Virus record (IMG/VR): IMGVR_UViG_2684622582_000003
Coordinates: 1 to 8,693 of that record
Direction: 5' to 3' (one strand)
DNA: 8,693 bases
Source: a virus
Lineage: Duplodnaviria > Heunggongvirae > Uroviricota > Caudoviricetes
A program made the position numbers and the translations under genes. Under the pieces are notes generated by a model. It saw nothing but the letters and a program-made list of their open reading frames with translations, was not told the origin of the DNA and did not search any database. Below are positions 1,095 to 8,693 of the stretch, piece after piece (position 1 is the first letter of the stretch; each line of letters begins with the position of its first letter).

Positions 1095-1442
1095 TTACGG
1101 CAGCGCCGCATGACTCAGGGCACTACCGGAAAAGGCGTTGGCCTTTTTGTGTTCATCCACACTCTCAGGCCAGTGAATTGCCTCCGTCGCAAAAGTCCCC
1201 GACTTGTAATACGTCAGTACCGTCTCTGTGCCTTCAAGCGGCAGTACCAGTATGCCAACCGCACCACCGGCTTTCTGTCCGTCCCAGACCACCAGTTTCC
1301 CGGTGGCCTCATCCAGCATCAGAGGCGTCAGAGCCGGTGTCGCCGAGGAAATCCCGCTGCTACCTGTGGCTGTATGAGCCGGATCATTACCGGAAAAAAT
1401 ACGTACTTCCGCACGCTGTTCAGTGATGGTTTTCGTTACCAT
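1095..1442 (-). CDS. D: Head decoration protein, lambda gpD-like
   Basis: 115-aa ORF with ATG start (lambda D is 110 aa). Matches recalled gpD motifs (DPAHTAT, TPLMLD, KLVxWDG, GAAVGIL, YKSGTF). Position between C and E as in lambda; GAGG SD upstream. Confidence 0.93.
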   Translation of the reverse strand: MVTKTITEQRAEVRIFSGNDPAHTATGSSGISSATPALTPLMLDEATGKLVVWDGQKAGGAVGILVLPLEGTETVLTYYKSGTFATEAIHWPESVDEHKKANAFSGSALSHAALP

Positions 1443-1478
1443 ATTATTAAAACCTCATATTGATGATCAGCAGTGGCT

Positions 1479-2264
1479 TTATGGCATGGCCATGAGCATT
1501 TTTACGTCCGCATCACCGTCTGCTGACGTTTGTGACATGCCGCCCTGTACCGCTGCCGGTGAATGGTTCGCCATGAAACGTTCAAACATGGATGTCGTGG
1601 AGGCAGAGACTGGTTCAGCTTTACCTGATGCAGCAGCCAGTACAGCCCGGGCATTCTCCACGGACATCCCCGGGCAGGCCGCCAGTTTTTCAGCCTGCGC
1701 CTCAGCCCCTTTCGCCTCATCCAGGGCCATGATTTGATCACGGAGTGATAGTCCGGCATCCGCCCGTGGTGAAGCAGCCAGGATCGGGCGGGCTTTTTCC
1801 ACTGTCATATCCGGCATCGCCGCCAGCGTTGCAGCCAGTTGTTCACGACCTTTCGCTTCTTCACACGCCATAATGCGATCGGCTTCACTCAGCGGGGATG
1901 CCTCCGGCTGCTGCGGTGCCGCCGCTGCCAGAATCGCCCGGGCCTGCTCAACGCTCATGCCCTGTTGTCCTGCCAGCATCGAGGCAAGCTGTTCACGTCC
2001 TTTCGCTTCCTGGCATGTCAGGATCCCCATCACTCGCTGGTTCTCCTGCGCGACGGCTTCCGTTGCAGTTAATTGCGGCATAGTGCCTCCTGTATCATGT
2101 GTGTTCAGCGTCGCGGCCATCACGCTGATGGCATCCGACGCATTGATTAATTCATCCGCCAGCCCGGCCTCAATACCTGACTGCCCTTCAAAAACTGCGG
2201 CCTCTGTCCCCATAACCGTATCCACAGATAAACCGGTATACATCGCCACTTTTTCAGCAAACAT
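1479..2264 (-). CDS. Nu3: Candidate nested scaffolding protein, Nu3-like (in-frame internal start within C)
   Basis: Inference from lambda, where Nu3 is made from an internal in-frame start at about codon 239 of C and shares its stop. Here in-frame ATGs exist at codon 241 (2262-2264) and codon 231 (2292-2294). The exact start cannot be fixed from sequence. Confidence 0.35.
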   Translation of the reverse strand: MFAEKVAMYTGLSVDTVMGTEAAVFEGQSGIEAGLADELINASDAISVMAATLNTHDTGGTMPQLTATEAVAQENQRVMGILTCQEAKGREQLASMLAGQQGMSVEQARAILAAAAPQQPEASPLSEADRIMACEEAKGREQLAATLAAMPDMTVEKARPILAASPRADAGLSLRDQIMALDEAKGAEAQAEKLAACPGMSVENARAVLAAASGKAEPVSASTTSMFERFMANHSPAAVQGGMSQTSADGDADVKMLMAMP

Positions 2265-2984
2265 CCGGCGCGCCGCATCAATGCGCTGCTGCATGTCCTG
2301 GCGAACCTCTGACGGCAGGGATTCAAACTGATTGCCATCCACCTTGTGCGATCCGGCGTAAATAAGCGTGATATCAACACCGGCCTGCGCCAGATGACCG
2401 GCATAGCTGACATGGCTCATCATCACACCAATGGAGCCGATACGTGATGTCTGGGTAATCAGCCGTCGGGAACAGGCCGATGCCAGCAGCATTGCCGCAG
2501 AGCAGGCCGTGTCATTGCACAGCGCCCAGACAGGCTTCTGCTGCCGGAGGCGGTAAATCATGTCAGCGCAGTCAAACGCGCCGGCGGCCTGTCCACCAGG
2601 GCTGTCAATATCCAGCAGTACACCCCGCACCTGGGTATCCGACATTGCCTGCTGAAGACAGGCGACAATGCCGTCATAACCTGTCATTCCGGAAAAAGGC
2701 CGCATGCCACCCAGCCGGTGCACCAGCGTGCCTGTCACCGGCAGTACAGCAATACCATTCACCACCCTGTAAACACGGGCCGGTCGTTTTCCTCCGGCCA
2801 TGTACTCGTCCGTTTCAGCCAGCATCCCGGGAGCATCAAGCTGTACCTGCTGTTGCGGTACCGAAAGACTTGTCGCACCCATCTCACGCCCCAGCGCGCA
2901 AAAGAAAACCCGCGCATAGGCGGGCTCCAGAAGCAGCGGTTCATTGAATGCTGCTGCAATAATGTGTGAAAGATTACGTCTCAC
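1479..2984 (-). CDS. C: Head maturation protease / scaffold fusion, lambda gpC-like (S49/ClpP-like fold), with expanded C-terminal repeat region
   Basis: 501-aa ORF (lambda C is 439 aa). N-terminal two-thirds collinear with recalled gpC (AFNEPLxLEPAYARVFFCAL, NGIAVLPVxGTL, YSGMTGYxGI, GGxxAGAFDCAD, KPVWAL, GSIGVMMxH, ITLIYxGSHKVDGN). Start is GTG at 2984 with GAGGAG SD about 10 nt upstream; overlaps the B stop by 11 nt. Confidence 0.9.
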   Translation of the reverse strand: MRRNLSHIIAAAFNEPLLLEPAYARVFFCALGREMGATSLSVPQQQVQLDAPGMLAETDEYMAGGKRPARVYRVVNGIAVLPVTGTLVHRLGGMRPFSGMTGYDGIVACLQQAMSDTQVRGVLLDIDSPGGQAAGAFDCADMIYRLRQQKPVWALCNDTACSAAMLLASACSRRLITQTSRIGSIGVMMSHVSYAGHLAQAGVDITLIYAGSHKVDGNQFESLPSEVRQDMQQRIDAARRMFAEKVAMYTGLSVDTVMGTEAAVFEGQSGIEAGLADELINASDAISVMAATLNTHDTGGTMPQLTATEAVAQENQRVMGILTCQEAKGREQLASMLAGQQGMSVEQARAILAAAAPQQPEASPLSEADRIMACEEAKGREQLAATLAAMPDMTVEKARPILAASPRADAGLSLRDQIMALDEAKGAEAQAEKLAACPGMSVENARAVLAAASGKAEPVSASTTSMFERFMANHSPAAVQGGMSQTSADGDADVKMLMAMP

Positions 2985-4566
2985 GTGGTGTTGTCTCCTC
3001 TTCCGGCCTGCGACTCTCCGCTATCTGCTGCTGATACGCCTGCGCTATCCACACCGGGCGTGAGAGCCCGGCTTTTTCCCGCTCTGCGGATTCCCTGACC
3101 TGCTGGCGGAAAATGTCCTGATAATCCTCGCCCATCAGTGCCAGTTCTTTCTCATACGTGCTCAGTCCGGCCTCAATGCGCATCACCGACTCCTGAACCT
3201 CCTTGAGTCCATCGATGGCCATTCTTCCGGAGCCAATCCACTCTGCCCGTGACCAGGCTGAACGCGCCTGATAAAAATCAAAACGCGCCCGTGGCGGACG
3301 AATAATCCCCCGAAGAAGCGCCTCTTCCAGCCAGCAGGAAAACATCTGCGTGGCCAGCCGGGACGCAATAAATTTTCGTCGCCCCATAAAATAACGCCAC
3401 GACTCATTGGCTGAGGCACGGGCACTTGAGTAACTGACCTTCGAGTAATCACGGGACAACTGTTCGTAGGAAACGCCAAGACCGGCGGCGATATACCGCA
3501 GCAGCGCCTGTTCAAGCGCAGAAAATCCATTATCTGAATCCTGCGCAGTCTGCAATTTCAAATCATCCCCGGGGAAAAGGTGCGGAATTTTGACACCGCC
3601 CAGCGTCACGTTATTCGTGTCATACCAGCGGGTGAACTTCTCCAGAATATTAATGAGCGGATTATCCTGCTGACTCTGCGGTGCACCCGCGATATATTCA
3701 AAGGCCTTTTCGGTATCGAGTTCACTTTCAATCGTCGCTGCATACATCGCCTTCACTATGGCCGACTGAAGCTGCGTGGTCTGCAGGGAATCGAGCATTT
3801 TCAGCCGTTCCATGACGCTGTAAAACTGATTAGCCCCACGGGTCTGCCCGTCCTCAACCGGCTCGAAAATATGCAGCATGGCCGGACGCCCGGTGGGAAG
3901 TTCACGCGGGATCCGTTCCCATCGTCCACTACCAGAGAACGGAAAATCATCCTCACAGATATGGTACGCAACGGCCCGTCCATACCGATCGACTTCCACC
4001 CCGGCCCGCAGGAAACGGTTACCCATACCGTGTCCCGGCGTGTCCACCCGTTTAGGGCTCACGGCTTTAAAACGCGTGCGGAATAACCGCGTGGTTTCCG
4101 TATCCCAGACCGGCTGCACAAAGATTTCACCGTTAAATGCATGAACGCCCACACCTTCACGGATAAATTCCGTAAAGGTGCGTTTCCCTTCCACATCGAT
4201 CTCGCCAAACATTCCTTCCGCGTATTCCGACCAGGCCGCCTCCACCTCATCGACAAAGATTTTTGCCGCGGACTCCCGCATCCCAAGCCAGCGCCAGTTC
4301 GGACGGTAACTAATAAGAAACATGTGCCCGACAATGTGATCCTTATGCAGGGCCACCGCATTGGCCGCTATACCGTTATTGCGTACCAGATCATCTGCAC
4401 GGGCATTCCCCAGACGCAACGCAGGCAGCAGGGCAGCATCAACACCCTGCGCCGGTGGTAACCACTCGGCCATTTGCCCGCCAAATCCTGCGCCGCCCCC
4501 GTTGTAGCTGAGACTCTCACGAAGCGGAACGCCGTTCACATCAATCAGGACTGGCGTTCGTTTCAT
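2974..4566 (-). CDS. B: Portal protein, lambda gpB-like
   Basis: 530-aa ORF (lambda B is 533 aa). N-terminus matches recalled gpB (GGGxGFGGQ, VDAALLPxxxxGNARADDLVRNNGxAANAxxLHxDHIVG). The ATG start overlaps the W stop as ATGA. Confidence 0.95.
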   Translation of the reverse strand: MKRTPVLIDVNGVPLRESLSYNGGGAGFGGQMAEWLPPAQGVDAALLPALRLGNARADDLVRNNGIAANAVALHKDHIVGHMFLISYRPNWRWLGMRESAAKIFVDEVEAAWSEYAEGMFGEIDVEGKRTFTEFIREGVGVHAFNGEIFVQPVWDTETTRLFRTRFKAVSPKRVDTPGHGMGNRFLRAGVEVDRYGRAVAYHICEDDFPFSGSGRWERIPRELPTGRPAMLHIFEPVEDGQTRGANQFYSVMERLKMLDSLQTTQLQSAIVKAMYAATIESELDTEKAFEYIAGAPQSQQDNPLINILEKFTRWYDTNNVTLGGVKIPHLFPGDDLKLQTAQDSDNGFSALEQALLRYIAAGLGVSYEQLSRDYSKVSYSSARASANESWRYFMGRRKFIASRLATQMFSCWLEEALLRGIIRPPRARFDFYQARSAWSRAEWIGSGRMAIDGLKEVQESVMRIEAGLSTYEKELALMGEDYQDIFRQQVRESAEREKAGLSRPVWIAQAYQQQIAESRRPEEETTPRET

Positions 4567-7206: not shown

Positions 7207-7373
7207 CCTGTCACAAAAAGAAGAAAGGATCTAAAAACGATTTTTTCAGCGAAAAATCACTGCTGCCAGATCCTTTCTTTTTTTAAAAAAGAATCTAGTA
7301 AACAACAAGTTACTCAGAAGAAGAACGGATCTGCTTTTTCCGGGAAAATTTTCATAAATAGCGAAAACCCGCG
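7207..7373. promoter_or_regulatory. cosB: terminase small-subunit binding region with three R-like repeats (R1 about 7215-7231, R2 about 7266-7280 inverted, R3 about 7316-7331) and an AT-rich spacer
   Basis: In lambda orientation the repeats read GATCCGTTCTTCTTCT (R3), AAAGAAAGGATCTGG (R2, inverted) and GATCCTTTCTTCTTTT (R1), in the same order, spacing and orientation as lambda R3/R2/R1 between cosN and Nu1. The AT-rich stretch between R3 and R2 (7281-7310) is where lambda carries its IHF site I1. The core differs from lambda (CGTTTCC). Confidence 0.8.
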
Positions 7374-7385
7374 AGGTCGCCGCCC
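7374..7385. other. cosN cohesive-end segment (12-nt 5' overhang; terminase nick sites flank this interval)
   Basis: The + strand aggtcgccgccc is the reverse complement of lambda's cohesive end GGGCGGCGACCT. Flanks cccgcg (7368-7373) and cgtaac (7386-7391) also match the lambda cosN flanks as recalled. Confidence 0.9.
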
Positions 7386-7634
7386 CGTAACCTGTCGGAT
7401 CGCTGGAAAGGACCCAGTAAATGAGAATAATTATCACTTGCGTTAATATCCTGTTTCTTCCACCCTCGCACAGGACTGGCGAGCATGAGGGACAAACCCG
7501 CGAATCATTAGCGCGGTAAAAACCCGGTGTGCATCGTTTTTGATTATTCCCGCACACTCGCGCAGAAGGAGTTCCCCGTCGGGCTGCGGTCATGGTTAAT
7601 GCGGGAATACGGCGACGATACAGCGCATGATGTG
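7386..7634. other. Noncoding genome right-end segment (expected to contain cosQ near cosN)
   Basis: Lies between the stop of the Rha-like gene and cosN. No convincing ORF; the only ORF here (7246-7593, minus) runs across cosN. cosQ is placed by position only (lambda has it a few tens of bp from cosN on the right-end side); I do not recognise a motif. Confidence 0.4.
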
Positions 7635-8183
7635 TCAGGCTTGAATACCCTTATCGAATCCCGGTAATAAAAACTGTCCCTGCCTTTCCAGGCGTTTCAG
7701 CTTTGCAAGCAATTGAGTTTTTTTCGTTCTTCCCCAGCGATTGAGCAGGCGGCCAGACATACTGGCGACATCCTTCTCTTTCATATACTCCAACATTATG
7801 GCGTTGCGTTCTGCTTCATAACTTTCGCTGTACTTACGGAGTTCTGCTGACATCCAGTTAAAGGCATTTATATAGGCCTCTTTAACGGCGTCGGCTTTTG
7901 CGCCATTAAATCCCATGACCAGCATAACGAAGCCACTAAAGTCCATGCGGTAGTAAATCTGTTTCTTGTCGAAAATCCCTAAATCATTGATTTTTTCGGC
8001 AACGCAAAAGTGCGCTCTCCGGAAATCTTCAGAGCAATGACAATTTTTCAGCGCCCTCAATACGTCCGCATGACGCTTACCAAATGCCTTTGCGATCTGG
8101 AAAGTGTCAGTTACCGGCTCACCCTCTGCTGCGGTAACTAACTGGCGAAAGTCAAAATCAGGAGTCTCAATTAATTCACTCAT
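7635..8183 (-). CDS. Phage regulatory protein, Rha family (N-terminal Rha-like DNA-binding domain), accessory gene between the lysis cassette and cos
   Basis: 182-aa ORF with ATG start and a GAGTAGG SD-like sequence about 12 nt upstream. Motifs FGKRHADVLRAL and MGFNGAKAxxxKEAYINAFNWM fit the Rha / Phage_pRha family signature as I recall it. The C-terminal 70 aa are basic, probably helical, and unassigned. Occupies the Rz-to-cos slot where lambda carries bor. Confidence 0.6.
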   Translation of the reverse strand: MSELIETPDFDFRQLVTAAEGEPVTDTFQIAKAFGKRHADVLRALKNCHCSEDFRRAHFCVAEKINDLGIFDKKQIYYRMDFSGFVMLVMGFNGAKADAVKEAYINAFNWMSAELRKYSESYEAERNAIMLEYMKEKDVASMSGRLLNRWGRTKKTQLLAKLKRLERQGQFLLPGFDKGIQA

Positions 8184-8401: not shown

Positions 8402-8693
8402 TTATTTTAAGCATTGCGTCCTGATGTACTCCTGCAGGTAGTTAACCTGCGCGGTTATCTTGTCGATTCCACTTCGGAGACGGTAATAATTGAGTTCAGC
8501 ATCTGCTGTAAGTCTTGGGCTTTCTCCATCGCCCATGCTGCTGGCTCCGGTCGTTGACTTTGCACAGGTGGCGGCGACTTGCAGGCGCTTACGACCAGCA
8601 GAAACATCAGCACGGAGACTTTCGATAGTCGCGTTAGCATCAGCAAGCTCCTTTGTGTATCTGGCGTCGAGTTCTGCTACATCACGTTGACGC
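8402..8693 (-). CDS. Rz: i-spanin Rz, 3' portion (5' end lies beyond the window)
   Basis: Minus-strand frame translates to RQRDVAELDARYTKELADANATIESLRADVSAGRKRLQVAATCAKSTTGASSMGDGESPRLTADAELNYYRLRSGIDKITAQVNYLQEYIRTQCLK-stop, matching recalled lambda Rz (RQRDVAALDAKYTKELADAK...AAGRRRL...SPRL...QCR). Stop codon TAA at 8402-8404. Confidence 0.9.
   Translation of the reverse strand, partial: RQRDVAELDARYTKELADANATIESLRADVSAGRKRLQVAATCAKSTTGASSMGDGESPRLTADAELNYYRLRSGIDKITAQVNYLQEYIRTQCLK
8455..8640 (-). CDS. Rz1: o-spanin Rz1, outer-membrane lipoprotein, embedded in the +1 frame of Rz
   Basis: ATG at 8638-8640 gives a 61-aa product MLTRLSKVSVLMFLLVVSAC-KSPPPVQSQRPEPAAWAMEK... with signal peptide, lipobox (VSAC) and Pro-rich mature region, like lambda Rz1. 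Entirely inside Rz in a different frame. The ORF track starts two codons upstream at TTG. Confidence 0.85.
   Translation of the reverse strand: MLTRLSKVSVLMFLLVVSACKSPPPVQSQRPEPAAWAMEKAQDLQQMLNSIITVSEVESTR

Follow-up and report, generated by a model that had tools for sequence, protein, structure and literature searches.

The window analysed here, a stretch of 8,693 nucleotides from a Caudoviricetes virus record (IMGVR_UViG_2684622582_000003), encodes on its minus strand a 501-residue homolog of the lambda C and phage 21 gp5 head maturation proteases, the C-terminal part of which appears also to be made separately as a scaffold, gp6. This shared part holds three tandem, diverged units. In identity and architecture they are almost certainly the known Tri boxes of phage 21, and it is very probable that, as the Tri boxes of phage 21-type gp5/gp6, they act as a scaffold module at the level of the protein. 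The three-unit array is already known through a GenBank feature table and is an ordinary, very common Escherichia coli prophage allele. Finding it here matters little in itself, the repeats being annotated in M81255.1 and the allele being among the commonest E. coli prophage head genes. Its residual value for the study of phage assembly lies in a conserved module that recurs in distant S49-protease phages with variable copy number and has neither a curated family nor a solved structure.

Tri units of the protease and scaffold gene

Over 1504 nt, the gene is 92.6% identical in nucleotide sequence to that of phage 21 (M81255.1 and OL657228.1; megablast against phage records). In the feature table of M81255.1 ('Bacteriophage 21 head gene operon'), gene 6 contains three repeat_regions, called 'Tri1 box', 'Tri box' and 'Tri3 box' and all described as 'function unknown; putative'. 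Because the alignment to phage 21 is ungapped, window coordinates equal locus coordinates minus 20, which places the boxes at window positions 1911-2014 (Tri1), 1764-1874 (Tri) and 1620-1733 (Tri3), overlapping units 1, 2 and 3, respectively (Table 1). Phage 21 gp5 and gp6 share with the window proteins the 501-aa length, the 200-aa nested product, the internal start, the ribosome-binding site and the repeat positions. The two gp6 proteins are 91% identical, with allelic substitutions only (for example in unit 3 and the tail) and an unchanged architecture.

A self dot-plot of the 501-aa protein (BLOSUM62) gave three top diagonals, at offsets of 50, 97 and 47 aa, exactly the pattern predicted for three tandem units. 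In a 20-residue window, these diagonals scored 68, 61 and 55, and all others 33 or less. Local alignments of unit against unit scored 107, 90 and 104, compared with 24-27 ± 5 for composition-preserving shuffles (z = 12.6-18.8), and none of 2000 shuffles reached the observed score. The internal repetition expected at the protein level, as three tandem, diverged, in-frame copies of about 45 residues, is thus borne out. Between units, protein identity is 22/35, 21/36 and 24/41 (58-63%) and in-register DNA identity 60-66%. The DNA copies are therefore diverged, as the original prediction held, although its figure of about 80% over the best stretch was generous: identity in the best local DNA alignments is 68-74%, and the match between units 1 and 2 reaches about 88% only over its first ~26 nt (GAAGCGAAAGGNCGTGAACA...). 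A seed-based DNA repeat finder recovered spacings of 141 and 150 nt. Tandem Repeats Finder reported no array in positions 1400-3000, because the copies are too diverged.

The 501-aa protein matches PHROG 53, head maturation protease (E = 7e-224). Its S49 domain is also matched by the NCBIfam model TIGR00706 SppA_dom (E = 3.5e-31), and Ser162 and Lys214 are invariant in its alignment with lambda C. The gene is flanked by the portal and the decoration and major capsid genes, as expected for the C/Nu3 family from synteny and Pfam assignments. In M81255.1 and OL657228.1, gene 6 is given its start and a putative ribosome-binding site at the position that corresponds to the window signal, and the C-terminal 200 residues of the gene 5 product would likewise be made separately in the window, as the scaffold gp6, from an in-frame start inside the gene. 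This nested gene spans the three units and the tail, in the order 12-aa leader, unit 1, linker, unit 2, linker, unit 3 and 48-aa tail. Scaffold and protease activities in prohead assembly are assigned here by homology.

Copy number in E. coli prophages and in lambda-type relatives

The 622-nt scaffold region was found at ≥80% coverage in 1864 of 5426 complete E. coli genomes (about one-third), with the best match (99.8%) in a prophage of E. coli M8. Among 30 evenly spaced rows of the ranking, 29 were a single ungapped piece of the full three-unit length. The full 600-nt, three-unit scaffold is present in all 19 isolated phages with this gene type; of the other phage records that matched, most are of lambda or phi80 type, with matches spanning only about half of the query.

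Lambda C (taken from lambda imm434) aligns with the window protein along the whole protease domain and has one unit, at residues 357-399. With 439 residues against 501, it is 62 aa shorter, in line with the single unit and the difference of about 60 aa given for it in the original prediction. phi80 C (447 aa) has the same build, also with one unit. In both, the unit is 60-63% identical to unit 1 of the window, of which it is the positional ortholog. Neither lambda nor phi80 carries the same three units, and the array accordingly stands as an expansion relative to both; it is not peculiar to the window, being the standard phage 21-type allele and occurring also in Gifsy-1. The lambda and phi80 systems share with the window the S49 protease, the nested in-frame scaffold and the gene position between portal and decoration protein, and differ in a linker between protease and unit that is ~36-40 aa longer. 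The tail that follows the units is homologous in the two types (z = 4.0 for the window against phi80 and 6.3 for the relative P0133 against lambda, from shuffles): it comprises a motif [FL]-[DE]-x-[FL]-M, a Gly-rich acidic stretch and a hydrophobic end (MLMAMP in the window, LLNTPV in lambda). By these alignments, the plan is unit-tail in lambda and phi80 and unit-unit-unit-tail in the window; in the 21/Gifsy lineage, two further copies stand after unit 1 and before the tail.

Lambda Nu3 (NC_001416) is a 201-aa protein that starts at codon 239 of C, about 60 residues earlier and inside the protease domain; it comprises the end of the protease domain, the long linker and one unit. On that start, Nu3 (201 aa) and gp6 (200 aa) are near-equal in length and different in composition. 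This near-equality despite one versus three units may be a coincidence or reflect a constraint on scaffold length.

The gpC homolog of Salmonella Gifsy-1 (498 aa) likewise has three units, ordered as here, followed by a homologous tail, and its scaffold part is only 54% identical to that of the window. The three units of Gifsy-1 indicate that the triplication predates the split of the E. coli and Salmonella phages. Positional comparison across phage 21, Gifsy-1, P0122 and P0124, the last two being more distant proteins with three units, gave identities of 67-98% for unit 1, 54-93% for unit 2 and 50-90% for unit 3, compared with 50-60% between neighbouring units within one protein. The units are thus closer to their positional counterparts than to their neighbours, which argues that the triplication predates these lineages and that concerted evolution has not occurred.

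The 120 database homologs nearest to the window protein are S49 peptidases of 435-721 aa, all from E. coli or Shigella, and include E. coli alleles with 2, ~2.5, 3 and 4 units, joined in register. Two-unit forms are represented by a 451-aa protein (P0092), in which a hybrid of units 1 and 2 is joined inside EAKGREQLA, also the best-conserved DNA stretch between these two units, and by a 452-aa protein of O157:H7 (P0116), in which unit 2 is cleanly removed at AAxPQ ends. Unit 2 lacks its second half in a 482-aa protein found in >1000 contigs (P0030) and its first half in a 472-aa protein (P0068). In a 551-aa protein (P0002), the second half of unit 2 and the first half of unit 3 are duplicated, giving four units, and a 657-aa protein (P0001) carries a larger duplicated block. 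Of the three units, unit 2 is the most frequently shortened or lost in the E. coli prophage alleles. The junctions look like those expected from unequal recombination between units, and this copy-number polymorphism of the Tri unit has, as far as we could check, not been described previously.

Two further kinds of variant were seen. Four proteins (P0006, P0007, P0008 and P0009) have in-frame deletions of 3-4 residues at the turn of unit 2, where AATLAAMPDMTV becomes AAMPEMTV, AATLAAMTV or AATLAAMPV; this could mean that constraint on unit 2 is relaxed relative to units 1 and 3, or that the prophages concerned are in decay. In P0083 (721 aa) and P0087 (577 aa), the frame runs just past unit 3 into unrelated sequence, with Gly/His-rich repeats (AHTHS...) in P0087, probably as a result of prophage deletions or rearrangements that fused gene 5 to a distant gene.

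Predicted fold, possible function and origin of the array

AlphaFold2 modelling of gp6 alone predicted in each unit a long helix that passes through a turn at (P)GM(S/T) into a short one, with a predicted local distance difference test score (pLDDT) of 81-91 for unit 1, 65-75 for units 2 and 3, and <50 for the linkers and most of the tail. With a 12-row alignment, the prediction was three short helices per unit, broken at the invariant Gly of EAKGRE, with a pLDDT of 74-84 for the units, linkers of low confidence, with scores below 50-65 across the two models, and a predicted template modelling score (pTM) of 0.28. The tail was modelled as a helix at scaffold residues 164-173 and as disordered elsewhere. 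Neither model places the units confidently relative to one another, and the pTM of ~0.3 suggests that they behave as beads on a string. We accordingly picture the units as predicted small helical domains of ~40 residues, each folding on its own, and gp6 as three such beads on a flexible string with linkers of Pro, Gln, Ala and Ser. The title of a 2011 paper by Medina et al. reportedly describes gpNu3 as intrinsically disordered.

From 153 instances, the unit consensus is E-R-x-R-[IV]-x-[GA]-I-[LM]-x-[CL]-[ED]-E-A-K-G-R-E-x-[LQ]-A-x-x-L-A-x-x-[PT]-[GD]-M-[TS]-V-[ED]-x-A-[KR]-x-[ILV]-L-A-A-A-P, with I8, E13, A14, G16, R17, A21, L24, A25, M30, A35 and L39 conserved at 88-99%. A Pfam scan of the 202-aa scaffold part returned nothing above threshold (best DUF7178, E = 0.04); weak matches to HHH_5, HTH_15 and DUF7178 fell below the family threshold and were dismissed. 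NCBIfam returned no family for the same part. Matches came from PHROG clusters only, among them phrog_8399 ('head scaffolding protein') and phrog_8940 (lambda Nu3), with three stretches each. Foldseek searches of the PDB with both models gave no match at E ≤ 0.001, a weak negative given the modest confidence of the models, and low-probability hits to RecR and gyrase were set aside as helical noise. A phmmer search of PDB sequences returned nothing relevant (best E = 6.3, unrelated).

The units sit in the part common to the protease gp5 and the nested scaffold gp6 and are followed by the separately conserved tail. Interactions of lambda Nu3 have been reported with C, E and the portal B, as well as with itself (PMC3224144). 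We tentatively propose that the unit is an association handle, through which scaffold molecules would bind each other and the protease during assembly, so that gp5 would be co-packaged with gp6; contact with the capsid protein would fall to the conserved tail, and three copies of the unit would make gp6 multivalent. The extra copies may also make up for the lack in gp6 of the protease-derived segment and long linker found in lambda Nu3. We regard this scheme as possible but short of probable. That the expansion may change scaffold valency or the length of the linker had been suggested from the sequence alone. A broader version, in which the Tri unit is an uncharacterised, widespread domain of ~40 residues that serves as the core interaction element of S49-linked scaffolds and sets their valency through its copy number, seems to us doubtful. 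If it were true, the natural E. coli alleles with 1, 2, ~2.5, 3 and 4 units and a lineage with recently duplicated units (P0127, P0131 and P0133) would provide a ready-made series for studying scaffold valency in the assembly of the T=7 prohead. To our knowledge, the scaffold interaction surfaces in lambda and phage 21 head assembly have never been mapped, and a defined role for the unit, be it self-association or binding of coat or portal, would fill a gap in this pathway.

Several observations weigh against reading the units as a self-associating scaffold module that tolerates changes in number. Neither experiment nor structure has assigned a partner to the unit, and GenBank itself labels the boxes 'function unknown; putative'. 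The AlphaFold2 confidence is modest, and the single-sequence model disagrees with that from the multiple sequence alignment on whether a unit has two helices or three. The alleles with 2, ~2.5, 3 and 4 units suggest that copy-number change may be tolerated, but no shortened allele was found among the 19 isolated 21-type phages, all of which have exactly three units; those of 2 and 2.5 units were all seen in bacterial genomes and may belong to defective prophages. Finally, the coat-binding helix-turn-helix of the P22 and phi29 scaffolds (PMC11922011) means that the unit could bind coat protein instead of associating with itself.

This last alternative, although on the unlikely side, is the most serious. 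The units would then be capsid-protein-binding elements like the helix-turn-helix of P22 and phi29, one gp6 could hold up to three copies of gp7 (E), and the tail would serve something else, for instance contact with the portal or exit and cleavage. It is consistent with the predicted helix-turn-helix-like form of the units, with their conserved K15, R17 and K/R36 (in the 43-column unit profile), with the use of this motif for coat binding in other scaffolds (PMC11922011) and with the two-hybrid interaction between Nu3 and E in lambda (PMC3224144). Known coat-binding elements, however, lie at or near the extreme C-terminus, which is occupied here by the conserved tail, and the surface motif EAxGRE of the unit hardly varies even among distantly related phages. 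P22 gp8 and phi29 gp7 are helical, largely flexible scaffolds with a helix-turn-helix coat-binding motif and offer a functional analogy only: they have neither a protease fusion nor a tandem array, and phmmer and Foldseek searches of the PDB detected no sequence or fold similarity between the window scaffold and the P22-type element or the P22 and phi29 scaffolds as a whole.

A profile built from the three units found 474 proteins at E ≤ 1e-3 among 1.84 billion cluster representatives. After one round of profile widening, the best 150 comprised 131 proteins with one unit, 13 with two and five with three. Single units typically lie at residues ~330-400 of proteins of 415-550 aa, the position of the unit in lambda-type S49 proteases, or in small proteins of 110-180 aa; Rhodobacter phage RcIroh has one unit (E = 5.6e-11). 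By these profile matches, the unit is a widespread module of phages with an S49 head protease, usually single and with no Pfam family. As relatives mostly have one unit, the most parsimonious course is that the ancestor had one unit and that the array expanded in the 21/Gifsy lineage. That the three-unit state is ancestral and lambda and phi80 lost two units is improbable. Whole or partial units have clearly been lost in register in some E. coli alleles, and MAFFT placed part of the lambda tail opposite unit 2; this candidate remnant of unit 2 was rejected as not significant (z = 0.6, p = 0.25), the lambda tail aligning instead with the phage 21-type tail, and the distant outgroups, RcIroh included, are overwhelmingly one-unit.

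Multi-copy forms in P0165 and P0225 probably arose independently. In P0127, P0131, P0133 and P0135, from metagenome or genome fragments of a separate lineage, the tandem units (GDQIMALPEAKGREQLAQALAEQPGMTVEQAKMLLAAAP...) are near-identical, which indicates a recent, independent expansion of the same module. The unit was also considered for FelixO1-like proteases, in which tblastn matches reach residue ~336-346, but the unit profile finds none in Citrobacter phage Mordin, and the extension is only helical or low-complexity similarity.

Residues identical between units keep the same codon in only 8 of 21, 8 of 20 and 11 of 19 cases. With synonymous sites scrambled to this extent, the similarity is maintained at the protein level and the duplication is old, in agreement with the greater closeness of units to their positional counterparts (50-98%) than to their neighbours (50-60%). 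The older in-frame duplication that had been proposed from the sequence is thus upheld: the copies arose by old in-frame tandem duplication and were kept by selection on the protein. The converse, that the repeats act in DNA or RNA as binding sites or recombination signals and that protein similarity is a by-product, we consider very improbable. The Tri boxes are annotated as DNA repeat_regions, the units serve as substrates of unequal recombination, and matches to the CII consensus are annotated inside gene 6 (OL657228.1). Against this, the units are no more alike in DNA (60-66%) than in protein, the codon is the same for only ~40-58% of identical residues, the protein profile detects the unit in very distant phages, and the CII pattern is short and degenerate. 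That the similarity is a product of chance in an Ala/Glu-rich, low-complexity region or of misassembly, as the Ala-rich composition and the null result of Tandem Repeats Finder might suggest, is excluded by the shuffles (z = 13-19) and by the recurrence of the three units in 19 phage isolates and of the region in 1864 complete E. coli genomes.

The OL657228.1 record marks two 'CII binding site' matches (ttgynnnnnnttgy) in gene 6, one of them within unit 2, at positions 1849-1862 and 2083-2096 of locus L005 (about 1829-1842 and 2063-2076 in the window). They are probably chance hits.

The head operon and neighbouring genes

The minus strand carries all large open reading frames (ORFs) of the window, and the head genes run Nu1, A, W, portal, gp5/C, shp/D and E (Table 1). 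By gene order and domain content, these genes are the head operon of a phage 21-like prophage, within a lambda-type late operon.

Table 1. Positions of the Tri units, the protease and scaffold gene and the other genes of the window
Feature	Position	Strand	Basis or remark
Unit 1 (= Tri1 box), residues 314-356, ENQRVMGILTCQEAKGREQLASMLAGQQGMSVEQARAILAAAA	1917..2045	minus	small hidden Markov model
Unit 2 (= 'Tri box'), residues 365-405, LSEADRIMACEEAKGREQLAATLAAMPDMTVEKARPILAAS	1770..1892	minus	small hidden Markov model
Unit 3 (= Tri3 box), residues 413-453, SLRDQIMALDEAKGAEAQAEKLAACPGMSVENARAVLAAAS	1626..1748	minus	small hidden Markov model
C-terminal tail, residues 454-501	1482..1625	minus	short helix MFERFMAN, Gly/acidic stretch, hydrophobic end VKMLMAMP
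Nested in-frame scaffold gene (phage 21 gene 6 / lambda Nu3 analogue), 200 aa from Met302	1479..2081	minus	ATG at 2081-2079
Shine-Dalgarno GGAGG of nested scaffold gene	2090..2094	minus	7 nt upstream of ATG at 2081, sequence caGGAGGcactATG
S49 (SppA-like) serine protease domain, residues 146-292	2109..2549	minus	PF01343 Peptidase_S49, 120 bits, E = 1e-34
Head maturation protease/scaffold fusion, S49 peptidase (lambda C / phage 21 gp5 homolog), 501 aa	1479..2984 (2984-1479)	minus	ORF list; GTG start
Major capsid protein E	1038-10	minus	Phage_cap_E
gpD/SHP-like decoration protein	1442-1095	minus	HDPD family
Lambda-family portal	4566-2974	minus	PF05136
W	4766-4563	minus	ORF list and Pfam
Terminase large subunit A	6720-4750	minus	ORF list and Pfam
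Nu1	7207-6650	minus	ORF list and Pfam
Rha-family regulator, 182 aa	8183-7635	minus	Phage_pRha and ORF11CD3 domains
Rz1 o-spanin lipoprotein	8646-8455	minus	PF06085, E = 2.4e-20

Upstream of the head genes, the Rz1 gene (8455-8646) is presumably embedded in an Rz gene that runs past the end of the window. The Rha-like ORF (7635-8183) lies between the lysis genes and Nu1, where lambda has no gene. Between it and Nu1, ~430 nt (7208-7634) hold no convincing gene, the only long ORF being one of 115 aa on the minus strand (7246-7593); from its position alone, this is where the cos site would be expected.

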